From contig MNVZ01000007.1 in the NCBI GenBank assembly GCA_001872315.1, positions 1 through 50,110 on the forward strand: 50,110 bases of DNA. The letters run 5' to 3'. The position numbers and the translations under genes were made by a program. The stretch is from Candidatus Pacearchaeota archaeon CG1_02_39_14 (GTDB taxonomy: Archaea > Nanobdellota > Nanobdellia > Pacearchaeales > GW2011-AR1). The notes below the pieces were generated by a model. It had not been told where the DNA came from and did not search any database. It saw only the letters and a list, made by a program, of their open reading frames with translations. This document shows, in pieces, positions 11,669 through 44,527 of the stretch. Position 1 is the first letter of the stretch, and each line of letters starts with the position of its first letter.

Positions 11669-11670
11669 CT

Positions 11671-12602: not shown

Positions 12603-12603
12603 G

Positions 12604-13212
12604 ATGCCGAAGCAATTTCTTTTTCTCTATCCTATAAGCGATTATTTCCAGACTTTGATCGGGTGGGAGATTTCGGGATTTAAGGAATACACTTTAAGAA
12701 GGGTATCTGACATAGTTGACAAGAGATATCGGCAGGAAAGATTTGATGTTAACTGGGTATTTTTTGCGGGAAAAAAGGCGAATGTTCCTGATATTTCAAT
12801 AGGGCAAAAAGGAATAAACATAAGGCATTCTGACAGAAAACTTTCCAGCGGGGTGAGATATAATGTGCATGCGGGGAATACTGTCCATCCAAACCCTTCT
12901 TATATTCTTGACCAGCTTCCACCACATACAACTCTGGTTGTCGCAGGATTTCACCAATGGAATTGTGTTGACAAAGTAGCTTCTGCTTCTTATAAGAGGG
13001 GGATAAATGTCTATGTCGACGAAGATATAACAGACACAGGAATAAACAGGATACTGATGATGAGGGATGTTCCTGTTATTAGAAGAAACCAGACTCTTGA
13101 ATCTGTCTTTTCCCCAGTGATGGGAGGGCCCTTAAGAGAATCTTTTCTTTCAGCAAGAGAAGGCAAGCCCTGGCTTCTGCAGCCCTCTTCCGGCCAGCCA
13201 GGTTATTCATAA
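12604..13212 (+). CDS. Divergent cysteine hydrolase (isochorismatase-like) protein
   Basis: LVVAGFHQWNCVDKVA...RGINVYVDED resembles the C-terminal motif of the family. ATG 12604 is 1 nt after the upstream stop. Confidence 0.55.
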   Translation: MPKQFLFLYPISDYFQTLIGWEISGFKEYTLRRVSDIVDKRYRQERFDVNWVFFAGKKANVPDISIGQKGINIRHSDRKLSSGVRYNVHAGNTVHPNPSYILDQLPPHTTLVVAGFHQWNCVDKVASASYKRGINVYVDEDITDTGINRILMMRDVPVIRRNQTLESVFSPVMGGPLRESFLSAREGKPWLLQPSSGQPGYS

Positions 13213-13845
13213 GTTTTCAATCTTCTTCTCAATCCATCTGCAGGCATCAACAAAATCTTTTGCAATGTAGATTCTTTCCGAATATTTTTTCTTTAATGCC
13301 TTTACTTTAAGCTTATGCTCTTTTCTTGTTATTTTTGAAGGCACATATACAGAATGCCCTCCAGCATTTATTCCTGTAAGCATATCTTCATCTTTATCCC
13401 CTATAAAAAATACTTTTCCATTTTCAACTAACCTGGTCCAATCAAGCCCGTTTTCCTTCGCTCCAAGTTTCAGCATTCCGGTGCCAGGCTTTCTCATGCC
13501 GTCATTTTTTATCCATTTCCTATCCTTAATTCCTGCATGTTCCGCGTATGTTGCGTCAACAAAAACGCTAAAATACCATCCATCGAGAATAATCTTGTCT
13601 TTTTTCAGCATTCTGGTAATTTCATTGCAGACGTCTTCAGCTCTCTTTGCAGTATAGAGTTCCCGTGCAATGCCGGATTGATTGGAAGCAACTATTATCT
13701 TTGCGTCAAGACCCTTCAGAATTTTAAGGCCCTCAATAACCCCTGGAAGAATCTTGACATGTTCTTTCCAGTTATCTTCACTTCCAAGATATCCTTTATC
13801 TTCAACAAGAGTATTATCTCTGTCAACACCAATAAGGTAAGTCAT
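13207..13845 (-). CDS. HAD-IIIA phosphatase, GmhB/histidinol-phosphatase-like
   Basis: DRDNTL, SNQSGIAR, RKPGTGM, FIGDK..D...G..AG. Confidence 0.88.
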   Translation of the reverse strand: MTYLIGVDRDNTLVEDKGYLGSEDNWKEHVKILPGVIEGLKILKGLDAKIIVASNQSGIARELYTAKRAEDVCNEITRMLKKDKIILDGWYFSVFVDATYAEHAGIKDRKWIKNDGMRKPGTGMLKLGAKENGLDWTRLVENGKVFFIGDKDEDMLTGINAGGHSVYVPSKITRKEHKLKVKALKKKYSERIYIAKDFVDACRWIEKKIENL

Positions 13846-27494: not shown

Positions 27495-29930
27495 TTATTC
27501 TGTTACCAAGCTTGCTTCTGTCGCACTGGTTCCTACATACTTCTTGCCGATGTCGGTCATAACCTCTTCGGTAGTCAAGAATGTAGCGGCATTTGTTGTG
27601 TCTCCAGCTTCATAACCTGCAACAAGAGTTGCAATCTTTCCTGTTGACCATGGGTTACTGAAGGTCTGAATAAGGAAGCTTCCTGCTCCTACACCAGTAG
27701 TACTTTCCCAGGAAGGTCCACACATGGCGGAATCTCCTCCTAACAAAGTAGATGCTACAGTGTTAACACAACTACCCCCAACAACAATAAGGTTCTTGCT
27801 TGACACGGAAGTAACTTGCGCGTCAGTTACAAGAATCTGGCCTAAATCTGCGCCTCCACTTCCAACACTTGCGTCTTCGGCTACGAAGTAGACCAAAGCT
27901 TCCAAGAAATTGTCAGGGAAAGTTGCAGTTATCTTTGAAGGAGCGCTTGATGTATCAAGGTCCTCTACAATAGCACCGTATTTGGTTCTTGTAGTAGATA
28001 GGTCAGTATTGTCGTTATCAGTTACAAATGTTCCAGAGCTTCTTCTGCTACTTGATGATATCTCGTTGTCACTGTTATTTTGCAGGTCCATCGAGAATAT
28101 CAGCTGTGCTGTGGTAAGTGGGTTCTCATCGTCGTCTCTGTCTGTATCATCAGCCATAAGACTTACCTGCCACTTATCACCTAATCCATCTCCCGGTAGT
28201 TCAGATGTGTTTATATCTGTAATGTTCAGCAATCCGTTATACTGAGTTCTCATAAGAACTGTAACGGTTTCATGAGCACTTCCAGAGTAAACAACACCAT
28301 TTGCAGCACCGCTTAAAGCGAGGTCGAAGTCGTTAGATGTATCATCAGACTTATTCACAAAAGTGAATGTAGTTCCTCCCAGTTTAAGGGTGAACTGTTC
28401 TGCTGTAGCATCATAACTTCTTGCAATAGTGCCTTCTGAATCTCCAAGGACATCTAGGTTTACCTTAGGATCACTGTCTGATGATTTATCAGCTCCCTTA
28501 TACTGAACAACAAATGTTCTTGCGTCGTTTGCCGCAGCTGAAGAATCAGCAGTATTAAGGATGAAGTAGTCATCATCTGTGATTGTTCCGTTTGGTTCCA
28601 ATACAAGTCTGTCAGAAGCCTTGTCTCCGCTATAAATACCGGTGGCATTCGCGAATACTAAAGGCATGTCAATGTCATGTCCATCAACATTCATGAATTT
28701 CAGCTTGTACTTTGTGTCTCCACTGCTTGGCTCAAGAACGATTTCCTCAGTCATATGTTCCGCAAATCCATGGAACTCAACATCCCATCCCTGCGTGAAC
28801 AATACTTCTGGTTCGTCGAGGTTGTAAGCATCGCTTAGCTTACCTCCAACAGGAACAAACAAATCATCCTCCGCGGTCATGTTTATCTGGATATCATCTA
28901 TCAAGATGTCACCTCCGCTTGTAGTGTTTGTAATGGTTACAATAGCATCACTGATTGTTTCAGTGTTTACTTTCATTGTAGTGCCATCTTCAAGCTCAAG
29001 CTTGTCAGCTCCCAAGAAGACAGTTGCATACTGAACACCTCCCTGGTAATCTTGGTAAGTGATATCGCTAACACCTACATTGATTCCAGCAATGATTGTG
29101 GTATCTCCATCATTCAATGTGTTAGAGGTTTCTCCGTTAACAGTAAGCTTAGTCTGGGTAGTACCTGTTGTAACACCTTCCACAGTGTACTGCGTTCCGT
29201 CAATTGTTACAGTATAAACTTCTCCATTGTACACATCAAGCCTCTCAACTCCGCTCATCATTGTAAGCTTAACACCATTCGAAGTGCTTTCAGCCTTCGT
29301 TATAGTATATGTCTTACCAAGCATTGTCAAGTCCTTGTCTTCAACATCTTCCAATCTTCCTGTAGAATCAAGATCAGAATCAAGAGTTGTTGTAAAGTCA
29401 AGTTCGTAGACTCCAATGTGAACTCCACTTGAGAACTTAAGGAAATCTCCAATTACGTCTTCATCATCTTCATCATAGACAACAGATGCGTTAACACCTG
29501 CAGTTGTTGATTTATCATCAAAGAAGTTGAAGAATTCTTCGTAGTTAGCAGTCCCCTTCTCGTTTGTTACAGAACCTCCACCCAAAAGGGCCCAATCATC
29601 ATCATCGATGAAAGTTTCAATTCTGAACAAAGGCTCTCCAATTTCAAGCTCGTCAGTTCCTGTGCTTACTTGCCATACATCACCACTAACTATCACATTC
29701 CCGCTTCCGCTGGACTGTGCAGCAAGTGCGTCTGACAAGTCAGACTGGATGTTTGCAGCAGCAACCAAATCGCTATTTAAGGCAGAACTACCCCAAACTA
29801 TTCCTACATCAGCAGCACCGTTCTGTACAAATGGTGCAGGATAATTTGCAGCAGCAGCCAAGGCTATTGTCGAACCTATAAGTGCGGTCGAAGCAGCAGC
29901 CGAAGCAATTTTTCTGAAGTTAAATTTCAT
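27495..29930 (-). CDS. Major S-layer protein (Methanococcales/Thermococcales-type N- and C-terminal domains)
   Basis: MKFNFRKIAS signal, YPAPFV, D..AA..I, C-terminal NLIVVGGSCVN and LVAG....T..AA; Asp/Thr-rich; strong GGAGGT SD. Confidence 0.9.
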   Translation of the reverse strand: MKFNFRKIASAAASTALIGSTIALAAAANYPAPFVQNGAADVGIVWGSSALNSDLVAAANIQSDLSDALAAQSSGSGNVIVSGDVWQVSTGTDELEIGEPLFRIETFIDDDDWALLGGGSVTNEKGTANYEEFFNFFDDKSTTAGVNASVVYDEDDEDVIGDFLKFSSGVHIGVYELDFTTTLDSDLDSTGRLEDVEDKDLTMLGKTYTITKAESTSNGVKLTMMSGVERLDVYNGEVYTVTIDGTQYTVEGVTTGTTQTKLTVNGETSNTLNDGDTTIIAGINVGVSDITYQDYQGGVQYATVFLGADKLELEDGTTMKVNTETISDAIVTITNTTSGGDILIDDIQINMTAEDDLFVPVGGKLSDAYNLDEPEVLFTQGWDVEFHGFAEHMTEEIVLEPSSGDTKYKLKFMNVDGHDIDMPLVFANATGIYSGDKASDRLVLEPNGTITDDDYFILNTADSSAAANDARTFVVQYKGADKSSDSDPKVNLDVLGDSEGTIARSYDATAEQFTLKLGGTTFTFVNKSDDTSNDFDLALSGAANGVVYSGSAHETVTVLMRTQYNGLLNITDINTSELPGDGLGDKWQVSLMADDTDRDDDENPLTTAQLIFSMDLQNNSDNEISSSSRRSSGTFVTDNDNTDLSTTRTKYGAIVEDLDTSSAPSKITATFPDNFLEALVYFVAEDASVGSGGADLGQILVTDAQVTSVSSKNLIVVGGSCVNTVASTLLGGDSAMCGPSWESTTGVGAGSFLIQTFSNPWSTGKIATLVAGYEAGDTTNAATFLTTEEVMTDIGKKYVGTSATEASLVTE

Positions 29931-30340: not shown

Positions 30341-30700
30341 ATGGCGCAAAAAACAAAGACAAGGCAGATAACTATCGTCGATAAAGGGGGAACTTTCAAT
30401 ACACTCCTTAGAAGGTTCTCAGGCTCAAAGGAAGATTATGATTTTGAGGGCATTTCGGCACTAAGAAGGTTGCTTTCAAATGAAAAGGCAAGAATTCTCC
30501 ACACAATAAAAACAAATCAGCCAAATTCTGTTTATGATCTTGCTAAAATCCTGAAAAGAGATTTCAAGGCAGTGAGGGGAGACCTTGAATTGTTGTCAAG
30601 ATTTGGGTTTGTTGATTTAATTTCAGAGAAAAAAGGAAAGAGGGAAAGACTAAAACCAGTCCTCGCAGTTGATTCAATAAATATAGAGATTCAAGTCTAA
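30341..30700 (+). CDS. Winged-HTH transcriptional regulator
   Basis: LLS.EK.RIL..I....P.SVYDLAK.L.RDFK.V..DL..L...GFV. Confidence 0.85.
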   Translation: MAQKTKTRQITIVDKGGTFNTLLRRFSGSKEDYDFEGISALRRLLSNEKARILHTIKTNQPNSVYDLAKILKRDFKAVRGDLELLSRFGFVDLISEKKGKRERLKPVLAVDSINIEIQV

Positions 30701-31197
30701 TAGCAGAGTCTTAAGGTGTTTATTATCTTTCCCGGAAATGATGGGATTAGGTAACTTGCTCCTGAAATCCTGTTTCCACATTCCCCTTTCTTTATGACTA
30801 AAATCTCTTCCCTTTCAGCATCTTCTGAATCTCTGGAATATAGTGATTCAAACACATATCCCTTTATGCTTGAATTCTCCCCTGTCTTCCATGCGGTTTC
30901 CAAAACATCGTTCATCTGTTTTTCCAGCACTTCACAGCTATCCATGTCATTTATGCATATCTCTCCAGAATAACACCTCTCAAAGAGGCTTCCTAAGTCT
31001 GAATATTCATCGCTTCTTATCTGGCACTCCGTTGTAATCTCTCCTGCGCTTTCAAGAAACTGATAGACATCCTTGCTTTCCCGGTTGCTTTCATCAGGAT
31101 TCCTTATCATTATTCCAAGGAAGACCATCAGAATCACAACCACAATCACCATTATAAGAGCAAATCCTACTATCTCTTCCTGGCCTCTCTTCATCAT
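30697..31197 (-). CDS. Pilin-like protein with class III signal peptide
   Basis: MMKRG|QEEIVGFALIMVIVVVILMVFLG; Cys pairs. Confidence 0.75.
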   Translation of the reverse strand: MMKRGQEEIVGFALIMVIVVVILMVFLGIMIRNPDESNRESKDVYQFLESAGEITTECQIRSDEYSDLGSLFERCYSGEICINDMDSCEVLEKQMNDVLETAWKTGENSSIKGYVFESLYSRDSEDAEREEILVIKKGECGNRISGASYLIPSFPGKIINTLRLCY

Positions 31198-31694
31198 TCT
31201 GCGCTCCTAAACCCAAGGTGGATTTTACCAAGCTCACATTTAATCCCTTCATCATACCTGCATAGAGCAACAAAAGAGGTCCGGGCAATGAATCCTTCTT
31301 CCTTTATCAGAGTTATTGTGCTGCAGTCAGGGTAGTTCTGCCTTGTACACTCTCCTTTTTCAGGCACAGGATAAATTCTTTCTATCTGAAGGAAAGGAAC
31401 ATCCCAGAAATCTTCATAATTCTCACTTTCTTTAAGGATAAGTGTCTTGTCCATGTCAACACAGGCAGAGCAATCCTTCCAGCTTAATTCAGGCCATGAG
31501 CTTGCCATCCTCACAAGTTCCTTTGCTTCTTCATCTCTGATTGTTTCCACATCCTGCCTTAAGCTCCCAGACCTTATTGTAATATAAAATAAAGCCACTA
31601 TGGCAAAAAATATCATTATTGCTACTAACACAAAGGCCATCTGCTGTATCTTTACCTGTCCCTTTTTAAAATAGTTCGCACGAAAGTCTTTCAT
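31194..31694 (-). CDS. Pilin-like protein with class III signal peptide
   Basis: FKKG|QVKIQQMAFVLVAIMIFFAIVALFY; start uncertain. Confidence 0.75.
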   Translation of the reverse strand: MKDFRANYFKKGQVKIQQMAFVLVAIMIFFAIVALFYITIRSGSLRQDVETIRDEEAKELVRMASSWPELSWKDCSACVDMDKTLILKESENYEDFWDVPFLQIERIYPVPEKGECTRQNYPDCSTITLIKEEGFIARTSFVALCRYDEGIKCELGKIHLGFRSAE

Positions 31695-32580
31695 TTTTGT
31701 CCTCAATTTCCTCTGAATTTGATTTTACAACCCTCAAGTCTCCGGAATTTTCAAATTCTCCTAAAAGAGAGGAATATCTTCCCAAATCCCCCGCAAGATT
31801 GCTTGAACATCCTTTTCCGGCAAGGAATTCTGATTTCTTTGCATAAATCTCTGCTAATTCGGAAGTTCTTTTTATAAGTCTCCTGACCTGACATTCATAG
31901 ACTTCAGCATCACTAAATATTGCTGCATAAACAAGCCCCTCTTCATAGTAAAGCCCGTCAACATCAGTCTGGCTTACTTTTTTGTCACAATCTCTGTCAA
32001 ATGAAGAGAAACAGACTTTAATGCTTTCAGGCTTGCATTTTTCCAGGCTTTCGCTGATATTGATGCCAGGGAGCCTCAAATCCATGACTTCTTCTTCAAT
32101 CTCATCTCCCGGATTAATGAAACAGTACTCTCCAGAGTAAATTGTGATGATATCAGCTACATCATAGGGCATTTCAAAAGACTTAACAAAAACGTAAGCC
32201 TCTTCCCCCTGCAGAACACTCTTTGAAAAAACATACTTGTCCTTGCTTTCTATCTCCCCTCCCGGAGGCAACCACTCCTTTCCTATCCCGCTTCTTACTG
32301 AAGTGCTTATTAACTGGCTGCCAAATATTCCGATGCTTGAGCATCTATTATAAATTCTTGTTTCATCCGGAAATCCTATTCTGACAAATTTAGAATCCTC
32401 GAGATTAGTTCCAACAGGGCTTAATATTGACTCAAGCTGGGCCGCAATTTTAGTGTCCGTTTCATACCTGCCGCTCCCAATCAGGCTTGTTGTAGCATAA
32501 ATTGCCAGAAAAATTACAACAGCACCAACAAGTATGGCAAAAAGCCAGGCAAAACTAAATTCAAATCCTTTTCTGTTCAT
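31666..32580 (-). CDS. Pilin-like protein with class III signal peptide
   Basis: MNRKG|FEFSFAWLFAILVGAVVIFLAIY. Confidence 0.75.
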   Translation of the reverse strand: MNRKGFEFSFAWLFAILVGAVVIFLAIYATTSLIGSGRYETDTKIAAQLESILSPVGTNLEDSKFVRIGFPDETRIYNRCSSIGIFGSQLISTSVRSGIGKEWLPPGGEIESKDKYVFSKSVLQGEEAYVFVKSFEMPYDVADIITIYSGEYCFINPGDEIEEEVMDLRLPGINISESLEKCKPESIKVCFSSFDRDCDKKVSQTDVDGLYYEEGLVYAAIFSDAEVYECQVRRLIKRTSELAEIYAKKSEFLAGKGCSSNLAGDLGRYSSLLGEFENSGDLRVVKSNSEEIEDKNERLSCELF

Positions 32581-33086
32581 CTTCTAGCTTCCGTGCTTGG
32601 AATCTTTATTTTAACAAGAGAATCAAGGCTGTTTTTTTCCAATCCTATCCTGACTTCTCCGTTTTCTGCCTGGAAGCATACAAATCCTGATGAAGTATCT
32701 ATATGTTCAATATTTACATACGGTTGGTCGCATGCCTCTTCAGCAGGATAAAAAAGCATATTTCCCCTGGCAATATATCTTTTCAGCTCTCTGAATTCAT
32801 CCGCATATTCAGCTGATGTTGCTGTAGGGCTTGAGAAGCATACAGACTCAATTCCATTAGGGACTCTTCCTGTATAAACATCACTCACGATTTCAGAAGT
32901 CCAGGCCCTGTCAACGCTGTCCTGAAAACTATCCTTAAAAAGGCCGATATCTGCACATTTTCCTATTCCCATAAAAGCTACTATCACATAAATGCTGGCT
33001 CCGATTATAGCGATGACAATAATTATAGAAAAAATAACTCCCACACTTAGAAACTCTGTCTGTCCTCTTCTCCCCTCTCTAATCAT
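32577..33086 (-). CDS. Pilin-like protein with class III signal peptide
   Basis: GRRG|QTEFLSVGVIFSIIIVIAII; ATG 33086. Confidence 0.75.
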   Translation of the reverse strand: MIREGRRGQTEFLSVGVIFSIIIVIAIIGASIYVIVAFMGIGKCADIGLFKDSFQDSVDRAWTSEIVSDVYTGRVPNGIESVCFSSPTATSAEYADEFRELKRYIARGNMLFYPAEEACDQPYVNIEHIDTSSGFVCFQAENGEVRIGLEKNSLDSLVKIKIPSTEARR

Positions 33087-33120
33087 CAATGAAACTGGGA
33101 AATTTTATAATTAAATGTTT

Positions 33121-34617
33121 CTATTTGTTCTTTTGATTCTTTCCATTAATCTTGTAAGTATATCCTTCCTTATATCCCTCAAAACCTGCCCAGTTGACTC
33201 CTGGTCCGCAGTCTCCGAGAGCGCTGCATATCTCTCCCTGCCTCTCAATCCACGCATCAGTCAGGCATTCACAATTTTCTGTGCATTCCTCTCCTCCAAA
33301 CAATCCTTTTTCAATACTTACTACACACTGAACATTCGCCTGGCTGCATATTGCCTGAGCTTCTTCAGAATTCCAAAAACTTAATCCTGGGGAGGTTTCA
33401 GGAAGGCAAACTCCTTTCTTCCCGTTCCCAAGAACGCCATTTGGCTCCCAGAAGCAAGTTCTTCTGTCAGTATTGAGGCAATCTTCTTCAGTTTTCTGTG
33501 CGGTGCAATCCTGCCATCTGTTGACTCTGCATGCCGCTTGTGAGAAAGGACCATTTGCAGTTTCTATTGAATCTTCAATGCAAACCTCAGCTCTAAAATC
33601 CTCGCATGCTTCAGGAACAACCTCTCCGTTGATGCAGACATATCTAAAGTCCCTGCTCCCTACCCTGTCTTCTCCAGGCCCTTCCTTTTCGTCACCGATA
33701 CACCAACTTTCCCCATGCAGTCTTTCCTGTCCTTCAAACTCGCAGTTCAAATCAGCACAAATATAATCCCCATAAGTCGGGCTTGCTCCAGCATCATTTT
33801 CATGCCTTGCAAAACTTCCAAGAAGATAGTCACAATTCCCACAAGTCCTTGATTCTGCATTGCTTCGCCCATAACCGCAGCTTTCATCTTTTCTCTTTAA
33901 GTTTGTCCAGTATTCCTGATCCTCCACTTTTGAGGCATCATAAATATTAGCAGAATTTCCACAGCTGTCCTTCCAGTAAACCTCATCTTTCCCGGGGATA
34001 GTCATAGTGTCCCTTGTGGGACCGCATATTGTCCCTAATTCCTCCGCAGAGCACAGCTTACCTATATAGAACTCGCTTCCATCAACACTTTCGCAGTCAG
34101 ATTTTGTCGTAAACTTGCATGTTCTTTCAAACTCGCTCTTAAATACGCACGCTCCCTTGTCCTGATTCTGGACAGAAGCAATGCATGCGACTTCTGATTT
34201 TATGCTTTGGTCATAATTTGTCTGCAGTCCAAGAAAAGAAGAAAGCTTCTTGCATCTCACTAATGTAACAAAAGCTGCCTGGTCTCCAAGGGTGCAGCAT
34301 CCAAGTCCGCACTGTGGAGGGCTCTCCTCACTCCATATTCCCCCATTCTGGTTGCAAACTAATTGAGGAGTGTTATCAGAACAGGTTCCTTCAGTAGAAT
34401 CATAACAAGTCCCTTCTCTGCAGAAGCTTGTGGCTTCACAGCTTGTTGGAACCTGCCGGCTTCCTTCTGCGCATTCTTCAGAAGGCACATTTTGGCAGTA
34501 CGCCCCGGCATTTGTCTGCTCACAGCAGACTGTATTGCTCTGTGCAGATGTATAATTAGCAAGGGAAAGAACTGCAAGGGAGGCTAACACAATGATAAAA
34601 ATAAGTCTTTTGCTCAT
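33121..34617 (-). CDS. Secreted Cys-rich protein, paralog of the N-terminal half of 35691-39311
   Basis: Signal peptide; dense Cys; GTCYD, GCC, DSCGN, CGNCDYLLGS, GESWC, LGDCG. Confidence 0.88.
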   Translation of the reverse strand: MSKRLIFIIVLASLAVLSLANYTSAQSNTVCCEQTNAGAYCQNVPSEECAEGSRQVPTSCEATSFCREGTCYDSTEGTCSDNTPQLVCNQNGGIWSEESPPQCGLGCCTLGDQAAFVTLVRCKKLSSFLGLQTNYDQSIKSEVACIASVQNQDKGACVFKSEFERTCKFTTKSDCESVDGSEFYIGKLCSAEELGTICGPTRDTMTIPGKDEVYWKDSCGNSANIYDASKVEDQEYWTNLKRKDESCGYGRSNAESRTCGNCDYLLGSFARHENDAGASPTYGDYICADLNCEFEGQERLHGESWCIGDEKEGPGEDRVGSRDFRYVCINGEVVPEACEDFRAEVCIEDSIETANGPFSQAACRVNRWQDCTAQKTEEDCLNTDRRTCFWEPNGVLGNGKKGVCLPETSPGLSFWNSEEAQAICSQANVQCVVSIEKGLFGGEECTENCECLTDAWIERQGEICSALGDCGPGVNWAGFEGYKEGYTYKINGKNQKNK

Positions 34618-34895
34618 CTTTCAGCTCCTGAATAACTTTCATTTTTGGTGTAAGCTTCCCTTAATTCATTTAATCCATTTTCCAATTCTTTAACATCATC
34701 TGGAGCCATAAGTCCGGTAGCTCTAAGCCTTCTGAAATCGGAGATTGCTGCTCCAATACTAACTGCTAAATGGTCAAGATAGTCCTGAGGTGCTCCCATT
34801 CTTCTATTTCTTTTGCTAAATGCGTTTGTATGCCCATAGATTCTTCTCTTCAAATTCTCAACCTCTTCACTAAATCCTTTTACATGCGCTATCAT
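34614..34895 (-). CDS. Orphan 93-aa helical protein inside the pilin/Cys-rich cluster
   Basis: ATGA overlaps at both ends; no signal peptide and no Cys. Confidence 0.6.
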   Translation of the reverse strand: MIAHVKGFSEEVENLKRRIYGHTNAFSKRNRRMGAPQDYLDHLAVSIGAAISDFRRLRATGLMAPDDVKELENGLNELREAYTKNESYSGAER

Positions 34896-35653
34896 ATTTC
34901 TTCTACTCCATAACCCTGCGGCCAGACAAGGCTTCTTGTCGCAAACTGGAACTCATCCTTTGAAACCACATTGCTTAATGTATACAATGTATTTCCATCC
35001 CTTTTTATCTTTTCTATTTTTAAATCTGGATAATACTGTATATATATTAGCGTTTCTGTATCGCCAAGAGTTGACTCAAAATCAACTATGCTTGAAGCTG
35101 TCAGAAGAAGGTCATACATTTCTGTATCAATTGAGCTTGAAAACTTCCTGAAAGTCTGGACGTTCTCCTTGCTGATAGTCATTGGTGAAAGGAATTCAAG
35201 ATTAAGTTTCCCCGGAATAAATGTGACATTCAAATTCCCTACATCTGCCTGAACATCATATCCTTTTGTCTCATAAAGCTTCTTCAGGTCATTCACGCAT
35301 TGTCTTGCTCTTGGCTCTATCTGCTTCTTCAATTCCATCTCAAAATTTCTCTTTATCAGGGGCTGTTGGACAACGCAAGGCTCATAAAATTCAGAAGTAT
35401 AGCAAAAATATGTAAATTTTTCTCCTTGGTAACTAACATAACTTTCAGGCTCGAGATATCCTCCGTTCATTGCCAACTGCTCCATTGTCTCCCTTGCATC
35501 ATCTTCTATGCAGTTTGCTAGGTATGAGTTCGGCTCAACATCCGTGATATAAACCTGCAGTCTTGGAGCAAGAAAGATAACCGCAACAACTCCAACTATT
35601 ATGACAGCAACAATGACAAAAAGCGTAACCTGTCCCCTTTTTCCGGTATCCAT
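34892..35653 (-). CDS. Pilin-like protein with class III signal peptide (paralog of 39311-40069)
   Basis: KRG|QVTLFVIVAVIIVG; GGYLEP, FYEPC..Q.P. Confidence 0.8.
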   Translation of the reverse strand: MDTGKRGQVTLFVIVAVIIVGVVAVIFLAPRLQVYITDVEPNSYLANCIEDDARETMEQLAMNGGYLEPESYVSYQGEKFTYFCYTSEFYEPCVVQQPLIKRNFEMELKKQIEPRARQCVNDLKKLYETKGYDVQADVGNLNVTFIPGKLNLEFLSPMTISKENVQTFRKFSSSIDTEMYDLLLTASSIVDFESTLGDTETLIYIQYYPDLKIEKIKRDGNTLYTLSNVVSKDEFQFATRSLVWPQGYGVEEI

Positions 35654-35690
35654 GCATTATCAAGCCCGATTTTCTTTATAATCCTTGCGA

Positions 35691-38600
35691 TTAATATCCA
35701 GACCTTGCCGTAGTGCAGCTTCCTGTATTGCCCCAGCCATCCTGACACTTTATGTAATAGTTTATCTGCGAATTGAAATCAGTAGTGTGCACTAAATCTG
35801 ACCCAGACATCTCAAATACATTCTCTCCTTCTATCTGGAAGCCGCAGCTATTGTGGCTGTAATAGCACATAGATTCTTCATTAGTTATCACTGTCAGCCT
35901 GCTTCCCTGTGAATAAACTCTTGTAATCATAGGCCCGATATCATCAACGTCTATCTCAAACTGCACGCCCGATTCAGCTACATTACCTGTGTCGTCCTCA
36001 CATCTTATCCCTATATCATAACTTCCCTCGAACAAGCTGGTGAAAACCTGCCTGTGCATGTCTGTCCCCGATTCAAAGAATCTTGCCAAATCATTATCCC
36101 CTCCAAATCCATAAGTGCAATACCGGTTCACAGGCGCCCCGCCAGAAGTTTCAACCTCTAGAGTAACTGTAACAGGTTGAGCTCCAGTGCTTATAACTCC
36201 CTCTTCCGCTTCAGGGTTCAATCTTATTTCTTCAATTATCAATAGTTCGCTTGTCTTTATGATCTTATACTCTACACCCTCATTATTTGTGTTCCTTTCT
36301 TCCTGTCCTGGCCTGTCTTTGCATCTGAAATAATAATTGGTTTCATTTTCGGAAACAGGAAGATTTGCACTGCACTCAAATCCAAACAGAGTATAATCTT
36401 CAAAATCATTATTGCAGGAAATTTCATTTTCCATCTGCTCATAATCTTTGTCTGTCAAACTGTATCTGCATTCAGCAGGCTCATTTGTATAGAAAGACAT
36501 GTTCATATTTTCTGCTTCCAGGGAGGCATAAGCAGGGCTTTCAGGCTCAAAGTTCTGCAATATCGGAGGGGTGATATCATTCTCTGGCGAGATACAGAAT
36601 CTTATTGCAAATTCATTCTCATTCTTGTTTCCAGAACCGTCTTGGCATCTTACAAATAAGTCAAAGTCAGCTCTTCTGTCAGGATCAAATCCGAACTCTC
36701 CCAGACTTTCCAGGCTTGGAAGGGATAATGCTGTAACATGATTTTTCTTGAAAAGGCTGCTCTCTCCAAAGAAGAATTCCATTTCATCATATTCTGCTGT
36801 ATGTTCAGTATCATACTTACACTGCCCGTGCTCATCCAGACTCACCCCAAAAGTAACCTGCGTATAAGCGGGGATGCATTCATTTTCCTTATGTTCCACT
36901 TTAAAGCTTCCGCTTGTAACCTCGGTATATTCAAAATCTTCTGAAATCACTTCATAATTAGGGCTTATTTTTGGGGCAAGAGTGTCATCTGGGGCAATGT
37001 CAATACATGCCTCCTCGCCTGTTCCTTCATTCACAAATTCACATGTCTGCCCAAGACTCTGGCATTTGTATTTAGAACAAGGCAAGTCTCCTTCAGTACA
37101 TGCCTCACAGCTATCTCCCCCAAGAGGCGGCTGCCACGGCATGCATGTAAATGCAACTTTCTTGGTTCTTGTATCTCCAATTCCAAGGAATTTGAATATT
37201 AGTATGATTATGATTATAACAATAATCGTCCACAATAACCAGCCATAACTAAACAATGCAACTCCATTGAATAGGCCGGGGATTCCAGTTGAGACAAACA
37301 ATCCTGTTGCAGCCCCTAATATTGTTACAGCAAGCAAAGCATCTCCCTCTAATCCAAATAATTTGCCAAGCAAGAATCCAATTGCAGCTCCAGCCGCAGC
37401 TCCAGCCGCAGCATTCAAGAAGGAGCTAGTAAAAGTAAACCCTTGATGCCCTAAGGCACCAAAGACTTCTGTAAATGTAAGCCCAACATTAACAAAGACG
37501 TAAGTATAATAGGCTAATACTACTCCCGTAGCTCCTGCTCCAAGACCTCCAATAATATTTGCAAGCTTGCTTTCAAACTCCGGATCATTTGGATCAAGAC
37601 CGAATAATGCGGCCGTCTCTTCTTCTGTTAATGGATCAACCTTCTGTCCTTGCACTGGCTCGGTATAAGATTGTAGTTCAGAAATATAATTTTGCCTTAA
37701 TTTCGGAGATCTTTTCACACTATACCCCGAGTCTGTAAATTCTCCTGCAATATTCACATTCCCTCCGCAATCTCCCAGGCTAATGCATAAATTATTCATT
37801 GTTTCTGCAAATCCAGGTTTAAGACAATCGCAATTGACTTCGCAATCCCATCCCCCAAAGCCTTTGACCTCAACAACAGTACATGTCTGTGTAGCAGCAG
37901 AACAAATAGATTCCCCTACTTCTCCCCCGAATTCTTCTTTTAAATCAAATCCAGGAGAATGCTTCGGAGCGCACACATCAAATTTGAAATTGCTTATTCT
38001 CACAGACTTTAAAAAACAGGCACTATTTTCTTCACATCTATCCAGTTTAGTTTTATCCTGGTTTGCAGCAATACATGACTGCCAGTTATTTATCCTGCAG
38101 GCAGCGCTGGAAAACCCAATCTCTTCATCCCTGGATTCCTGACATACTTCATTTCTGAAATCCTGGCACGGATCTGTCCTTACCTCTCCATCAACACAAA
38201 CCTGTCTGTAATGTCTGCTTCCTGGCAAATCAACGCTCCTTTCCTTATTCTTTGTGTCCCCCTGCACGCCTATTGCAGAATCAAAAGCGCACCAGCTCTC
38301 TCCGTTCTTTCTCTCCGCCCCCCATTCATCTATACATGACAGGTCTCTGCAGACATATTCTCCTTCTAAGGGCTTTTCATCATCTTCCCCAGGAGTTCCG
38401 CACAAACTTCCAAGAAGATAGTCGCAATTCCCACATCCTTCCTGATTGCTTCCATCAAGAGAGCAGCTTTCGTTCTTGCTGTAAATTCTGCTCCAGTAAT
38501 CATCATTGGCCTTCTTGTTGGTATCATAAACATTAGCTCTGTTTCCGCATGAGTCAAGGAAATAAACCTCGTCCTTGCTTTCAAAACAGCTCGTCTCTTT

Positions 38601-39311
38601 TGTTCTAGTGCAGATAGTATTTAACCCAGGATTCGTGCACAGCAATCCGGAATTAAACTCTCCTCCCATAGAAATGCAGTTTGCTTCAGTAGTAAATTCA
38701 CAATCGTACAAGCCGGGTTCCACTTCCTCCAAAACGCACGCCCCATCCTGCTGCTGCTCTCCTAATAGAAGGCATTCCAGTTCATTTTCAACTTCCTGCC
38801 ACTCCCCGGAAATTCCCAGTCTGTTCTCAAGAACGCTGCATGCCTGTTCAGTAATATAATTTGCATTTCCTCCAATAAGACAGCAACCTGGATTGCATTG
38901 TGCAGGCTCCTGCTCAAACCATTGCCCTCCTGAATTTTCACAAGCAAGTTTTGGAGACTGTGCAGAACAGGTTCCTTCCAGGTTGTCATAGCATGTCCCC
39001 AGCTGACATTCACGTGTTTCGCTTCTTTTAGAAGGAATGCAATCTTCTAAGCATAAGTCGTTGCATATTTCCGACGGATACTCCTGACATATGGTTCCAT
39101 TCAGGCCCTCAAGGCACGTCCATAACCCTTCCTGCGCGCTCACTAGCCCATTAGATAAATACCCAAGTATCTTTTCTCTAAGCCAGGTAACAGTTTCATC
39201 CTCAACTGATTTTCCCGGAACAAGTGCAGAACTTTCATGAATAAAATATGAAACAGCAAAACCTGCAGCAATCATAATAAATATTTCAAACAAAGCAATA
39301 TTTTTTCTCAT
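35691..39311 (-). CDS. Giant (~1,206 aa) Cys-rich surface protein with internal Gly/Ala-rich hydrophobic domain and C-terminal Ig-like repeats
   Basis: ATG 39311 overlaps the upstream TGA. C-terminal repeats T(N/D)E...C.Y and RC.D..GN. Confidence 0.88.
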   Translation of the reverse strand: MRKNIALFEIFIMIAAGFAVSYFIHESSALVPGKSVEDETVTWLREKILGYLSNGLVSAQEGLWTCLEGLNGTICQEYPSEICNDLCLEDCIPSKRSETRECQLGTCYDNLEGTCSAQSPKLACENSGGQWFEQEPAQCNPGCCLIGGNANYITEQACSVLENRLGISGEWQEVENELECLLLGEQQQDGACVLEEVEPGLYDCEFTTEANCISMGGEFNSGLLCTNPGLNTICTRTKETSCFESKDEVYFLDSCGNRANVYDTNKKANDDYWSRIYSKNESCSLDGSNQEGCGNCDYLLGSLCGTPGEDDEKPLEGEYVCRDLSCIDEWGAERKNGESWCAFDSAIGVQGDTKNKERSVDLPGSRHYRQVCVDGEVRTDPCQDFRNEVCQESRDEEIGFSSAACRINNWQSCIAANQDKTKLDRCEENSACFLKSVRISNFKFDVCAPKHSPGFDLKEEFGGEVGESICSAATQTCTVVEVKGFGGWDCEVNCDCLKPGFAETMNNLCISLGDCGGNVNIAGEFTDSGYSVKRSPKLRQNYISELQSYTEPVQGQKVDPLTEEETAALFGLDPNDPEFESKLANIIGGLGAGATGVVLAYYTYVFVNVGLTFTEVFGALGHQGFTFTSSFLNAAAGAAAGAAIGFLLGKLFGLEGDALLAVTILGAATGLFVSTGIPGLFNGVALFSYGWLLWTIIVIIIIILIFKFLGIGDTRTKKVAFTCMPWQPPLGGDSCEACTEGDLPCSKYKCQSLGQTCEFVNEGTGEEACIDIAPDDTLAPKISPNYEVISEDFEYTEVTSGSFKVEHKENECIPAYTQVTFGVSLDEHGQCKYDTEHTAEYDEMEFFFGESSLFKKNHVTALSLPSLESLGEFGFDPDRRADFDLFVRCQDGSGNKNENEFAIRFCISPENDITPPILQNFEPESPAYASLEAENMNMSFYTNEPAECRYSLTDKDYEQMENEISCNNDFEDYTLFGFECSANLPVSENETNYYFRCKDRPGQEERNTNNEGVEYKIIKTSELLIIEEIRLNPEAEEGVISTGAQPVTVTLEVETSGGAPVNRYCTYGFGGDNDLARFFESGTDMHRQVFTSLFEGSYDIGIRCEDDTGNVAESGVQFEIDVDDIGPMITRVYSQGSRLTVITNEESMCYYSHNSCGFQIEGENVFEMSGSDLVHTTDFNSQINYYIKCQDGWGNTGSCTTARSGY

Positions 39312-40069
39312 CAGAATCCAGGCGGAATAGCACACCCCCTTATAGCTACGTTCATTTTGTCTCCGGAATCCTTGTAAATTATGGTATATATCTTTGTCGA
39401 GTCTGAAAGAGTATATTTCCTTATATCAAATTCAGGATATAAGAGCATGAATCCAAGATATTCAAAATAGCAATATTTGGCTTCCTGCCTGGCGATTTCA
39501 TTTGCCGTATAGCCTAAATCATATAGATTGCTTTTTATTGTTGAAGTGAAATATTCAAAGTTTCTGCTTTCTTCCTCTCTGGAAATCTGCATGTCCCTAT
39601 AAACAACAATCTCAACACTGCCCGGTTTTAGAGTGGCCTTAATTTCAATTTCATCTCCACCAACCTGATAATTTCTTCTTTCCAGCTCATCTTCTAATTC
39701 AAGGAAGCAGGATTCAACATCTTCCCTTATTCCGGATTCAAGCTCTTGTTTTAAAGTTGTAAGATAAACAGGATACTGGGCAATGCACGGCTCATAATAA
39801 TTCACATTTTTGCAAAGGTATGCAACATTTGAATCATCATACTTAACATAATCGCTTGGGCTCAAAAATCCTCCCTGCGGGAGCATCACATCTATTTTTT
39901 TCCTTGTGCTCTCTCTGATGCACCTGTCCATAAAAGATTCAGGATTGAATTCCTGTTCCAGGCCTATATCTATTCCCCTCTGCTGGAACACAGCGAAGAA
40001 GACTATCACCGCTCCGACCAAAAGAATTCCAACAATGACAAAAAGAGTTATCTGCCCCTTATTGTTCAT
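39311..40069 (-). CDS. Pilin-like protein with class III signal peptide
   Basis: MNNKG|QITLFVIVGILLVG; GGFLSP, YYEPC..Q.P. Confidence 0.8.
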   Translation of the reverse strand: MNNKGQITLFVIVGILLVGAVIVFFAVFQQRGIDIGLEQEFNPESFMDRCIRESTRKKIDVMLPQGGFLSPSDYVKYDDSNVAYLCKNVNYYEPCIAQYPVYLTTLKQELESGIREDVESCFLELEDELERRNYQVGGDEIEIKATLKPGSVEIVVYRDMQISREEESRNFEYFTSTIKSNLYDLGYTANEIARQEAKYCYFEYLGFMLLYPEFDIRKYTLSDSTKIYTIIYKDSGDKMNVAIRGCAIPPGF

Positions 40070-40208
40070 TTTTCTTCTCCCTCTCAATGAGTATTTTTAG
40101 AGCTTCTTCAACGAGATGAGCTTTATTTCGGTATTTGCCCTTTTTCATGATTTCATCTATGGCTTTTCTCGTCTTAGGCTCAATAGTTGCTGATACCCTC
40201 TCTTTCAT
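40059..40208 (-). CDS. Ribbon-helix-helix (CopG/MetJ-like) regulator
   Basis: Translated by hand, not in the track: MKERVSATIEPKTRKAIDEIMKKGKYRNKAHLVEEALKILIEREKKNEQ; overlaps the first pilin-like gene. Confidence 0.82.
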   Translation of the reverse strand: MKERVSATIEPKTRKAIDEIMKKGKYRNKAHLVEEALKILIEREKKNEQ

Positions 40209-41125: not shown

Positions 41126-42703
41126 ATGTCAGAAAAGGAGGAAAGAATCCGTTCTATAGTCAGCATATATTACTCAAATCCTGCGGTGCAAAAAGCCCTT
41201 TTTGAATTTGCACAAAACAGGGAAGTTGTTCCCCGTTATTTTGAGGGTTTTGGAAAGAGGCCTGACACCTTCCAGTATCCAGGGGATGTGATGGCTGCTG
41301 TAAAAAAAGGGGCAACCTCATTTCATGCTTCAGAAGAAATATGGAGAGACCCTCTTCAGCTAAGTTCAGACTTTTCCCCCTCAGAACTTTCTGAACTAAG
41401 GAAAGCATGGGACATGCTTATTGATGTAGATTCTCCTTTTTTGGATTATTCGAAGATAGCCACAACACTTCTTGCAAACGCTCTTGAATCACATGGAGTC
41501 AAGAGTTACGCAATAAAATTTTCAGGAAGCAAGGGATTTCATCTGATTGTACCTTCAGAAGCATTTCCCAAAGAGTTCAGAGAGCAGGAAACAAAAGACA
41601 TGTTCCCAGAGTGGCCAAGGGCAATCTGCGAGTATCTAATGGAATTTATCAAGCCCGAATACAATAGGGCAATTTCAGATTTGGGAGTCAATTATAAGGC
41701 AATAAAAGAAAGGACAAACCTCTCAAAAGAAGATATAACAAAAATAATCTGTCCTGAATGCGGAAGCAAGGCTGAAAAGACCAATCTTGTGACTCTAAAA
41801 TGTAACCGTTGTCAAAACGTACAGCATAGGCCCTCCTTCAAGGTCACAAAAAGAAGACTAAGGTGTATAGAACTTTCCTGCCCGGGGGAATACGAATTAG
41901 AGTCCGAAGCTGAACTTTACAGGTGCAAGGCTTGCAGTTATTCATCATTTGACAAGACCTCTTTCAGCACAAGGAACATAGCAACTCATACTTCAGAAGC
42001 AAAGAAATCAAAATACTCGCAGGAATTTAAAGAAGAAGTTTCAGGAGAGGCGCTAGGTTCTCTGGATTTGGTCCTTGTCGCCCCAAGACATTTGTTTAGA
42101 ATGCCCTACTCCCTTCATGAGAAAACGGCTCTTGCAAGTGTAGTCCTGTCAAAAGAAGAGATAGCCGGATTCACCCCAAAAGATGCTAATCCTCTTAACG
42201 TAAAAATAAAATCATTTTATCCAGTCGTAAAGACGCCGGAAGCAAGAAATCTTTTATCATCAGCCTTGAACTGGAAAAAAGGCAGAGAGGAGACGCAGGA
42301 AAAGGAGATTAAGAAAAAATATGAGTCTATGGAGTTTGAGGCCATGGACCTTTCCCATATCGAAGAAAAAGATTTTCCTCTCCCTATAAAAAATCTGATG
42401 AAAGGGCTGAAAGATGGAAGAAAAAGAGGGTTGTTTGTTCTTCTGACTTTCCTAAGAAGCATAGGATATCCCCCAGATAAGATTAATGAAACTTGCAGGA
42501 CATGGAATAAAAAAAACGAGCAGCCATTAAAAGAAGGATATCTAAAAAGCCAGATAGATTGGCATCTGAAGCAAAAGCGCAGAATACTTCCTCCTAACTA
42601 TTCCAATCAGGCTTTCTATAAAGATTTACAGCTTTTTGAAACTCCACCAAAGGAAAAAAATCCTTTGTCAGAGATAATGAAAAAGGTAAAAAACCGCAGA
42701 TAA
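41126..42703 (+). CDS. priSL: Fused archaeal primase PriS-PriL(CTD) with Zn-ribbon insertion
   Basis: AEP motifs WDMLIDVD, KFSGSKGFH, HLFRMPYSLHEK; C-terminal DGRKR.LFVL..FL...WN...LPPN domain; next to PCNA. Confidence 0.85.
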   Translation: MSEKEERIRSIVSIYYSNPAVQKALFEFAQNREVVPRYFEGFGKRPDTFQYPGDVMAAVKKGATSFHASEEIWRDPLQLSSDFSPSELSELRKAWDMLIDVDSPFLDYSKIATTLLANALESHGVKSYAIKFSGSKGFHLIVPSEAFPKEFREQETKDMFPEWPRAICEYLMEFIKPEYNRAISDLGVNYKAIKERTNLSKEDITKIICPECGSKAEKTNLVTLKCNRCQNVQHRPSFKVTKRRLRCIELSCPGEYELESEAELYRCKACSYSSFDKTSFSTRNIATHTSEAKKSKYSQEFKEEVSGEALGSLDLVLVAPRHLFRMPYSLHEKTALASVVLSKEEIAGFTPKDANPLNVKIKSFYPVVKTPEARNLLSSALNWKKGREETQEKEIKKKYESMEFEAMDLSHIEEKDFPLPIKNLMKGLKDGRKRGLFVLLTFLRSIGYPPDKINETCRTWNKKNEQPLKEGYLKSQIDWHLKQKRRILPPNYSNQAFYKDLQLFETPPKEKNPLSEIMKKVKNRR

Positions 42704-42733: not shown

Positions 42734-44527
42734 ATGAAAAAATCAGGGGTGCTTGCATTTTTGTTTATTCTGCTGTTATTGTATCCGGTAATTGCCCAGG
42801 AAGAGGAGGGAATTGACAAGGCATATCTCTGTCTTGAGAATCAGATAGCAAACAAGACTTCAGGATCCCTGTCCTTGCAGGAAGCTGTTTTCTCAACTCT
42901 CGCTCTAGGCTCTGAATCAAAGCTTACTGATAAAATTGAAGATGAAAGATCAAACCAGAATTGCTGGCCAAAAGAATCCTGCACAATAAAGGACACAGCA
43001 CAGGTGCTCATAGCATACGACAGGATAAACAAGAACACAGAATCAATACAATCATATTTACTGTCAAGAAACGGCTCTGCAACCGACCTCACATGGTATT
43101 TGCAGGTAGATATTTCAAATCATATACCCTCCGCATGTACTTTTACCTACGATGAGAGGGATTATCAGGTAAGCATCGGCGAAGACATGAAAATTTCAGG
43201 CAGTGCAGGATCCTGTCTTCAATTAAGCTCTTCAGGGTATTGGTTGCAGATATCAAGAAATTGTTTCGAAAAAACTTTCCAGGTCTCTTGCGACGAAGAT
43301 TTCATAACCTCTCTTCTTTATCAAAAATCAGGTTCGGAAACAATATATGTTTCTTCTGAAACCCATTCGGCGCCTTCTTCCGGAACGACAGAGGAGCGCG
43401 TGGACTCCCAGTGCTTCAAGTCAGGAAGTTCATGTGATTATGAGGGGACTTTATGGGCTGCATTGGCATTGCAAAAAGCAGGCGAGGAAATATCTTCGTT
43501 CCTGCCATATCTTCTTGCTCTATCAGAAGATCATAATAACTTATTTCCGAGTTCCTTTCTGTATCTTCTTACCTCCGGAGATGACCAATACTCCCAGATA
43601 ACGCAGGCACAGAAAACGGCAGGATTCTGGGAAGCTCCAAATACGAAGTACAACAAATTCTATGACACCTCACTCGGCCTTCTAGCCCTGCAGGATTCTT
43701 CCGCAGCGGAATCTGACACCGCGAAGGCATATCTGCTATCAGTTCAGACCCCAAAAGGGTGCTGGAACAATAATAATATCAGAGACACAGCATTTCTTCT
43801 CTATTCAGGATGGCCAAGAGGAGTTTCTTCAGGTGGTGGGGAAGGAGAAGGTGGAGAATTAACTTGCGCAGGGGCGGGATACTATTGTGGTTCCCAATTT
43901 GACTGCGCAGAATCTGAAGGACAGATTTTGAACGAGTTCAGCTGCCAGGGTTTCCAGTCCTGTTGTTCGGTTCCAATAATTGAGCAGACTTGCTCTGAAA
44001 AATCAGGAGTTTTATGCTCATTTAGTGAGCAATGTTCAGGAACGGAAGTTTCTTCTGTTGAAGGCACATGCTGTCTTGGTTCCTGCCGGCCTATAACTCT
44101 GGAAACTTCGGAGTGCGAGGACAATGGAGGATTCTGTTCTTCCTTCTGTGAAGATAATGAAGAACAGGCTTCATATTCCTGCGGAAATTCCGGAGGAGTG
44201 TGCTGCATACCAAGTGAAAGTTCCGGAGGGATTTCCTTAATTTGGATTGTTCTCCTTGCAATCCTTATATTGCTGGTCGTTCTGGGAATAATCTTCAGAG
44301 ACAAAATAAAGCTCTGGTGGTTCAAGATGAGAAACAGGAAGAATTCTGATAAGAGTCCTTCAGAAATGTCTGGTCCAAGGCCACCTCCAAGATTCCCTCC
44401 AGTTCAAAGAGGGCCTCCGATTCAGAGACAGCCGTTGATGAGAAGGCCGCAGCCGAGAAGGGCATCATCGAGGGCCGATAGCGATATGGAAGAGACTCTT
44501 AGAAAGCTTAAAGAAATGAGTAAATAA
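42734..44527 (+). CDS. Surface protein with alpha/alpha-toroid-like repeats, Cys-rich modules, TM and Pro/Arg-rich tail
   Basis: Signal peptide; Q...G.W repeats (QKTAGFW, YLLSVQTPKGCW); C...GG.C...CC modules. Confidence 0.8.
   Translation: MKKSGVLAFLFILLLLYPVIAQEEEGIDKAYLCLENQIANKTSGSLSLQEAVFSTLALGSESKLTDKIEDERSNQNCWPKESCTIKDTAQVLIAYDRINKNTESIQSYLLSRNGSATDLTWYLQVDISNHIPSACTFTYDERDYQVSIGEDMKISGSAGSCLQLSSSGYWLQISRNCFEKTFQVSCDEDFITSLLYQKSGSETIYVSSETHSAPSSGTTEERVDSQCFKSGSSCDYEGTLWAALALQKAGEEISSFLPYLLALSEDHNNLFPSSFLYLLTSGDDQYSQITQAQKTAGFWEAPNTKYNKFYDTSLGLLALQDSSAAESDTAKAYLLSVQTPKGCWNNNNIRDTAFLLYSGWPRGVSSGGGEGEGGELTCAGAGYYCGSQFDCAESEGQILNEFSCQGFQSCCSVPIIEQTCSEKSGVLCSFSEQCSGTEVSSVEGTCCLGSCRPITLETSECEDNGGFCSSFCEDNEEQASYSCGNSGGVCCIPSESSGGISLIWIVLLAILILLVVLGIIFRDKIKLWWFKMRNRKNSDKSPSEMSGPRPPPRFPPVQRGPPIQRQPLMRRPQPRRASSRADSDMEETLRKLKEMSK

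Follow-up and report, generated by a model that had tools for sequence, protein, structure and literature searches.

Contig MNVZ01000007.1 of Candidatus Pacearchaeota archaeon CG1_02_39_14, a stretch of 50,110 nt that was analysed whole and is called the window below, encodes on its minus strand (40208..30697) a cluster of ten overlapping or near-abutting genes: one for a ribbon-helix-helix (RHH) protein, six for pilin-like proteins of five families (pilA to pilF), two for paralogous Cys-rich proteins (Cys1214 and Cys498), and one small open reading frame (ORF), orf93. We propose that the cluster specifies a cell-proximal surface complex derived from a type IV filament, with a four-subunit pseudopilin core (pilC-D-E-F), two adaptor pilins (pilA and pilB) and membrane-anchored Cys-rich proteins, and we put the probability of this reading at about one half. 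As part of it, the cluster would be this lineage's version of a 'pilin-only' envelope locus that extends across the phylum in Nanoarchaeota and Pacearchaeota. At the level of sequence, a conserved N-terminal motif, a retained prepilin peptidase and a fixed gene cassette beside a large envelope protein together point to an assembly of type IV filament origin.

Each of the six pil proteins opens with a short, positively charged leader whose last residues are (K/R)G; then come Q (F in pilD) and a strongly hydrophobic stretch. Orthologues were scored for K/R, G/A/S at position -1 and a hydrophobic helix of about 20 residues, and these features are kept in 53 of 54 pilA/B members (pilA and pilB being paralogues, 31% identical) and in 11/11, 9/11, 9/9 and 8/8 orthologues of pilC, pilD, pilE and pilF, respectively. 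Glutamine at +1 is retained in pilA/B (53/54), pilC (9/11), pilE (9/9) and pilF (8/8) and occurs in none of the 11 pilD orthologues; it is a residue typical of Epd-type pilins at this position. Q17 and K19 of pilE are invariant in all nine orthologues, as are Q6, E8, G11 and F12 of pilF in all eight. Retained to this degree, the N-terminal motif is under selection, and the six class III signal-like N termini described in the original prediction are real and conserved. Profile comparison with hhalign shows that the five families have only the N-terminal segment in common (36 columns), as pilins do, and Cys residues are conserved within the ectodomains of the pil families. In a crude count over non-overlapping ORFs of at least 80 amino acids (aa), such a start is carried by 39 of 766 ORFs genome-wide and by six of the nine non-RHH cluster genes (binomial P ∼1e-6, a rough value only since pilin genes cluster).

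The genome to which the window belongs as contig C18 (688 kb in 35 contigs, estimated to be 86% complete) contains the processing and assembly functions that had been predicted to act in trans. There is a single Peptidase_A24 gene, on contig C35, together with four T2SSE matches (C19, C34, C35 and C23) and four T2SSF matches in two loci, two each on C19 and C34. On C19 an ATPase gene and two platform genes lie next to genes for a VWA protein and pilin-like proteins; C34 likewise has two platform genes. A24 was found in 292 of 301 sampled genomes of the phylum; two of the genomes counted, here as in the pilD tally below, carry an unpublished flag (G282 and G283). In the part of a DPANN survey drawn on here, adjacent ATPase and platform genes with scattered pilins are the usual pattern, and system 1 of the type IV filaments has two platform genes (PMC13705601). 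We note that C35 carries a second pilin-rich locus, without Cys-rich partners (C35:1-16500, locus L135), in which the A24 gene adjoins a run of eight pilin-like genes in one orientation (2965-8331), with the conserved 758-aa T2SSE-type ATPase close by (11456-13732).

Conservation of the cassette and the Cys-rich partners

The cassette and the Cys-rich proteins are differently distributed among relatives. The Cys domain, shared by Cys498 and the N-terminal part of Cys1214, is present in 30 of 41 relatives, in 23 of 24 genomes of the same family, and in 82 of the 301 phylum genomes, with at least 567 stretches in one-genome-per-species contigs; pilB has 7695 representative relatives. Across 18 loci of close relatives, a pilA/B-type gene stands directly before the Cys-domain gene in 33 of 33 cases, and in one congener, as in the window, orf93 is found between pilB and its Cys gene. 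PCNA is upstream in 11 of these loci, and pilC (to pilF) follows the Cys genes in 10, with five others ending before that point. A 639-aa protein encoded elsewhere in the genome (C10:82010-83929; locus L049:4011-5930, minus strand) resembles pilA/B over its first ∼190 residues and has a KRGQ-helix start; homologues of 600-690 aa occur in 32 of 41 relatives among the matches listed, and it belongs to no Pfam family.

The cassette reaches far more widely than the Cys domain, and a pilD profile matches 251 of the 301 genomes. Where places were listed for both genes (36 genomes, compared by hand), pilD lies at most 10 kb from a Cys gene in 26. Nine distant loci were scanned with hidden Markov models made from the alignments of the cluster families; pilC, pilD and pilF were found in 9/9 and pilE in 8/9, with all four present in 8/9, contiguous in the order C-D-E-F in 7/9, and directly behind a giant ORF (884-2091 aa) in 9/9. 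Strong pilA/B matches are confined to two of the nine, the same two that have a Cys N-domain. One of these distant loci, L141, from another family, repeats the order PCNA-[pilA-Cys]x2-pilCDEF-S-layer. The gene order, for which conservation in relatives was the proposed check, is conserved in close and distant relatives, and what is seen corresponds to a minor-pilin set: about four distinct pilin-like proteins in conserved order beside a large non-pilin protein.

Further pilin-like ORFs follow the cassette in six of the nine distant loci, including short ones of 86-125 aa. These short genes (L139:8637-9204, L142:4997-5338, L145:4266-4643 and others) stand just after the cassette, start with the conserved pattern K-G/A-Q-G/S-[LI]-S-[LI]-N, and are candidates for a major subunit.

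This distribution also bears on an arrangement resembling the bindosome, in which the proteins are processed by A24 and form no filament; their helices would tether the ectodomains near the membrane, as has been proposed for the class III signal-bearing sugar-binding proteins of Sulfolobales, and the role would be structural, for example the anchoring or patterning of the surface (S-) layer. An S-layer gene is indeed a conserved neighbour (with a helix-turn-helix (HTH) gene, it follows the cluster in 6/18 close loci, and an S-layer homologue comes directly after pilF in L141), the giant partners are anchored in the membrane, the locus has no linked ATPase, and a cassette as near-universal as this one is easier to reconcile with housekeeping in the envelope than with an adhesin peculiar to a lineage. 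Class III signal-bearing binding proteins also depend on base machinery, according to part of the survey (PMC13705601). However, four distinct small families in fixed order are more like minor-pilin sets than like independently tethered proteins, six of nine distant loci continue with pilin-like genes including the 86-125 aa major-pilin type, and the S-layer gene is not adjacent to the cassette in 7/9 of them. We consider a tethered, filament-free arrangement possible, although rather doubtful.

Four minor-pilin-like genes in fixed order, nearly universal in a phylum of reduced genomes, would also be expected of a competence-type pseudopilus for DNA uptake. The cassette would then be the counterpart of the four ComG minor pilins of Gram-positive bacteria, scavenging nucleotides or DNA where biosynthesis is scant, with the giant proteins as surface receptors. 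No DNA-binding or ComEA/ComEC-like domain is found in the cluster proteins with Pfam or NCBIfam, however, and the partners are Cys-rich and Ig-like envelope proteins, so that DNA uptake seems very improbable.

The Cys-rich partners also bear on whether the structure is short or long. Cys1214 and Cys498 are 40% identical over 495 aa, corresponding to the N-domain, and contain 5.4% (65 residues) and 8.2% (41 residues) Cys, with ∼30 invariant or near-invariant Cys columns in the Cys-domain family. Cys content over the nine non-RHH cluster genes ranges from 0 to 8.2%, eight of the nine having at least 1.6% and orf93 having none; other ORFs of the window mostly have 0-1.5% (up to 2.2%), except for one of 4.7% at 42734-44527. 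Cys1214 has a Sec-type N terminus, the Cys-rich N-domain (∼60-550), a Gly/Ala-rich hydrophobic membrane region (∼590-724) and, in its C-terminal half, four Ig-like repeats; the hydrophobic segments inside the protein are at ∼639-724. For most full-length relatives of Cys1214 one such internal segment is predicted, and the giant ORFs of 7/9 distant loci have one near the C terminus.

Database searches with these proteins returned few names. The 366 relatives of Cys1214 are unnamed or hypothetical but for one labelled Yip1, and Big_13 (Ig-like) matches the C-terminal part weakly in 9/36 homologues, one of them above the cut-off. Against the sequences of the PDB, neither a profile of the Cys N-domain nor the C-terminal half of Cys1214 gave a meaningful match. 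For Cys498, the AlphaFold model is of moderate quality (pLDDT 77.6, pTM 0.52); its best Foldseek match in the PDB has an E of 0.076, its best VIA Z is 4.5, to small disulfide modules (FnI/vWC/chitin-binding-like), with domain IV of archaeal Fsx1 at Z 3.9, and BFVD yielded nothing. A reading of the Gly/Ala-rich stretch of Cys1214 as belonging to a fusion protein was considered and dropped: a homologue bears the label Yip1, and the stretch has the character of a membrane segment with several passes.

In relatives, a Cys498 homologue either is fused (1385-1404 aa) or has behind it a gene of 750-990 aa like the C-terminal half of Cys1214; Cys498 is one half, the N-terminal one, of a gene that has been split. 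At C15:35971-38115 the genome encodes a paralogue of 714 aa that corresponds to the membrane region and Ig-like C-terminal half of Cys1214 (35% identity, E 3e-92) and is probably the detached second half of Cys498. The 714-aa gene (locus L048:5972-8116, plus strand) is situated between RNA polymerase/NusA-like genes and rps12-rps7-EF2, and its product matches Big_13 at E 7.6e-6. Just upstream are a 269-aa lipoprotein-like ORF and a 178-aa ORF with a thioredoxin fold (Thioredoxin, 23.9 bits).

The description of two paralogous secreted Cys-rich giants thus stands with regard to paralogy and Cys content, but only Cys1214 is a giant, and with its segments at ∼639-724 it is not simply secreted. 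Cys498 by itself is soluble; overall the large partners do not behave as soluble secreted proteins. A tip adhesin, as originally envisaged, is a poor fit to proteins with hydrophobic membrane segments inside Cys1214, most of its full-length relatives and the giants of the distant loci. With a membrane region lying inside Cys1214, and with Cys498 derived from the splitting of a gene of that type, a cell-proximal complex is more likely than a long pilus; membrane-anchored large partners, the lack of ATPase linkage and the S-layer neighbourhood likewise argue for a short structure close to the cell, and a long pilus with a tip adhesin fits less well.

A possible assembly, and points against a type IV filament origin

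A number of results count against deriving the complex from a type IV filament. None of the nine non-RHH cluster proteins reaches a cut-off of any Pfam or NCBIfam family, and the six pil proteins match no pilin model (Pfam PF07790 Pilin_N and PF04021 Class_IIIsignal; NCBIfam) at E ≤ 0.1. When pilin models were run at E ≤ 5, they recovered none of the 54 pilA/B members and none of the 11 pilD members; in the whole genome, PF07790 and PF04021 match ORFs on C23 and C19 only. Positions +2 to +4 agree with what we take to be the FlaFind pattern only in pilA and pilB, and include charged residues in pilC to pilF. The AlphaFold model of pilB (pLDDT 92.6, pTM 0.81) has a helix at residues 6-34, a break, and then an alpha/beta ectodomain. 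Foldseek found no match to it in the PDB at E ≤ 1e-3, and the best VIA hits, Z 6.7 (2ia7, gp25-like; rmsd 3.8, 93 aligned) and, at a second look, Z 5.2 (T4 gp25), are at the background level stated for VIA, with no pilin listed in either case; with such scores the gp25-like resemblance of the model is only a lead. The ESM Atlas returned only unnamed Nanobdellota clusters for pilB and pilD, the Atlas model of pilD having no named look-alike, and a PDB sequence search with the pilD profile gave nothing meaningful. The proposal that these are minor pilins is supported by the N termini; there is no Pfam pilin match, and the modelled head of pilB gives no match to a solved pilin.

Gene linkage adds to these points. 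As stated in the original prediction, the window contains no ATPase, TadC-like platform or peptidase gene, and neither ATPase nor platform genes are found in the 18 close loci. In five of five distant genomes a conserved 758-aa ATPase lies 70-400 kb from the cassette, and it is adjacent only in L144. Three of the 18 close loci continue for at least 5 kb past the Cys genes with no BLAST match to pilC-F, and we found nothing convincing in this 86%-complete genome that resembles the short major-pilin genes of the distant loci.

One explanation of these negatives would be that the proteins have no relation to type IV filaments, their N termini being plain signal-anchors of type II membrane proteins in which K/R-G occurs by chance, and the whole forming a membrane complex of disulfide-rich proteins. 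Consistent with this are the missing pilin family or fold, the absence of a linked ATPase or platform gene, and pilD, which has F/L/I rather than Q at +1 and lacks the motif in 2/11 orthologues. A simple anchor, however, leaves unexplained why a small residue at -1 (in all families) and Q at +1 (in all but pilD) are kept across otherwise unrelated families, and A24 is retained in 292/301 of these very small genomes. We therefore regard plain signal-anchors as improbable.

For the cell-proximal complex of type IV filament origin, the following assembly can be envisaged. The operon would be transcribed from a start ahead of the RHH gene, whose product would probably autoregulate it. The pilA to pilF proteins would be inserted in the membrane via their N-terminal helices, and, as their motif and the presence of the enzyme suggest, the sole A24 peptidase would cut the basic leaders after G/A/S. 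One of the two machines of an ATPase and two platform proteins (on C19 and C34), laid out like the Epd-type 'system 1', might then assemble the helices into a short filament or pseudopilus. In this structure pilC-D-E-F, with their fixed order and near-universal presence, would be the conserved four-subunit core, parallel to the four minor pilins or pseudopilins of other systems, and the strict gene pairing suggests pilA and pilB as adaptor pilins, each coupling one disulfide-rich Cys protein to the core. The product would more probably be a stalk spanning the S-layer, or a contact complex near the cell, than a long pilus carrying an adhesin at a free tip.

What the structure is for is a matter of conjecture; it might adhere to a surface or to host cells. 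A bolder version of the proposal takes the cassette and its giant partners as a phylum-wide DPANN envelope machine, a stalk or docking complex derived from a type IV filament that spans the S-layer for host contact, with the Cys domains and adaptor pilins as an exchangeable, lineage-specific module for host recognition; this we think unlikely. A barrel-like docking structure, seen by cryo-electron tomography in another DPANN lineage and unassigned in the part of that report cited here, may be comparable (PMC11329633).

That scattered DPANN pilins are served by machinery in trans has been published, as part of the same survey shows (PMC13705601). No description of the cassette or the Cys-rich family was found in the literature covered, which did not include supplementary tables S4 and S5 of that survey, where DPANN components are listed. 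The fixed-order pilC-D-E-F cassette, the pairing of pilA/B with the Cys genes, the membrane region of Cys1214 and the split gene of Cys498 are new.

Organization of the locus and its surroundings

The features of the cluster and its downstream neighbours are shown in Table 1. All ten genes are co-oriented and most are joined by stop/start overlaps, as had been reported: five junctions overlap by 1-4 nt, two overlap further (RHH/pilA by 11 nt; pilD/pilE by 41 nt, or 29 nt if pilE starts from an in-frame ATG), and two are gaps of ∼30-40 nt. Upstream of the cluster are genes for PCNA and primase, and downstream is the convergent HTH gene, its 3' end overlapping the pilF stop by 4 nt, and then the S-layer gene, so that the cluster does lie near an S-layer gene, with the HTH gene in between. 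The HTH gene, which stands beside the cassette in L044 also, is a conserved neighbour and a possible second regulator. Protein relatives of the window are labelled Pacearchaeota, Woesearchaeota or Nanoarchaeota. DNA of the window is present in DNA runs from groundwater, aquifer and sediment; no RNA run is listed as containing the stretch.

Table 1. Coordinates of the cluster genes and downstream neighbours in the window
Feature	Coordinates	Strand	Product	Remarks
RHH	40059..40208	-	Small DNA-binding protein (CopG-type), 49 aa	First operon gene; Pfam RHH_1
pilA	39311..40069	-	252 aa from ATG at 40069 (MNNKG before Q)	Pairs with Cys1214; class III signal-like
Cys1214	35691..39335	-	Giant Cys-rich envelope protein	Likely ATG at 39311 (1206 aa, as in record P0241)
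pilB	34892..35653	-	253 aa (MDTGKRG before Q)	Pairs with Cys498; class III signal-like
orf93	34614..34895	-	Small charged ORF without signal peptide	4-nt overlap with both neighbours
Cys498	33121..34617	-	Secreted Cys-rich protein, 41 Cys	N-terminal half of split Cys1214-type gene
pilC	32577..33089	-	170 aa	Cassette gene 1; motif in orthologues
pilD	31666..32580	-	304 aa	Cassette gene 2; +1 residue F/L/I, not Q
pilE	31194..31706	-	170 aa (KGQ-x-K-I-Q-Q-M-A-F)	Cassette gene 3; motif in orthologues
pilF	30697..31197	-	166 aa (RGQEE-IVGF)	Cassette gene 4; motif in orthologues
HTH gene	30341..30700	+	HVO_A0114 family	Convergent; Pfam PF25212, E 7e-16
S-layer gene	27495..29930	-	S-layer protein	Conserved downstream neighbour; S_layer_C 24.1 bits, above cut-off

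The RHH regulator proposed as the first gene was recognized through its orthologues. The copy in the window scores 19.3 bits against RHH_1, over positions 1-39 of 39, with a cut-off of 20.5, and the model matches 6/6 orthologues at E ≤ 0.01, four of them above the cut-off; NCBIfam gives a weak ParD/NikR match. By BLAST, an RHH gene is upstream of pilA in 5/18 close loci. Relatives of orf93 are limited to the window and one congener (L030, 33% identity), and the ORF is missing from loci in which the Cys gene adjoins pilB. It belongs to no Pfam or NCBIfam family and may have been inserted recently, or may not be a genuine gene at all.

An insertion of ∼2.8 kb that the window does not have is seen between pilB and Cys1214 in two congeners (L030:9802-12592, relative G001; a similar gap in L032). 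In L030 it encodes a 685-aa protein with a class III-like start and a 141-aa ORF that, judged by eye from the sequence, looks PIN-like.

Other genes of the window were noted. The ORF of 4.7% Cys at 42734-44527 (plus strand) specifies a secreted protein of 597 aa that has a membrane segment at its C-terminal end and a tail rich in Pro and Arg; no Pfam family matches it, and BLAST shows no relation to the Cys1214 family. At 41126-42703 (plus strand) a single 525-aa ORF matches models of both the small (PF01896) and large (PF04104) primase subunits and so resembles a primase in which PriS and PriL are fused. Another surface-protein neighbourhood, 3 kb from the S-layer gene, contains at 22988-24937 (plus strand) a gene for a secreted protein of 649 aa with a CARDB/Ig-like domain; after it come a multi-pass membrane ORF of 183 aa that belongs to no family and a VTT-domain protein.

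Significance and comparison with known systems

These findings are relevant to how DPANN archaea touch and exploit their hosts, and we know of no envelope component of the large uncultured Pacearchaeota and Woesearchaeota groups that has a known role. A pilin-like four-gene cassette present in about five of six sampled phylum genomes, an adaptor-pilin/Cys module found in hundreds of species, and the likely processing and assembly genes can now be tested. If the cassette builds a contact structure, it offers concrete targets for cryo-electron tomography, metaproteomics and heterologous expression; if it is housekeeping scaffolding of the S-layer, core envelope families that have no present annotation will still have been named.

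In bacteria, the priming and capping of type IV pili, and of the pseudopili of type II secretion, is the work of four minor pilins or pseudopilins, as exemplified by the GspH-I-J-K tip of the type II secretion pseudopilus; the ComG competence pseudopilus also has four minor pilins. The complex proposed here would share with these pseudopili the four minor subunits and a short, cell-proximal form in place of a long fibre, but there is no secretin, the locus has no GspD/E/F genes, and no homology is seen.

Two archaeal systems offer further parallels. An ATPase gene accompanied by two platform genes, as found in this genome, is the layout of 'system 1', or the Epd pilus of Methanococcus maripaludis, in the part of the survey cited (PMC13705601). 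The Epd locus described there has 11 genes and includes a peptidase and machinery of its own (PMC13705601), whereas the six proteins studied here match no Pfam pilin model. The Sulfolobus bindosome, according to the same part, also presents large ectodomains on a class III signal peptide and helix with its base machinery encoded elsewhere (PMC13705601). The cluster differs from it in having no substrate-binding-protein domain and no ABC transporter in the locus, and in adding four small conserved subunits.

A similar layout is that of the priming and tip complex of type IVa pili, formed by four minor pilins and PilY1 in Myxococcus xanthus and Pseudomonas, as far as the part of the source used here describes it (PMC7541494). 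In both cases small, distinct pilin-like proteins are encoded in fixed order with a large non-pilin surface protein alongside, and the genes for ATPase, platform and peptidase lie in other places. The two show no detected similarity of sequence or fold, however, and the Cys proteins contain no Pfam PilY1/PilC family. The large partners here are Cys-rich and membrane-embedded, the lineage is archaeal, and there are two extra adaptor pilins, paired one-to-one with the Cys proteins.

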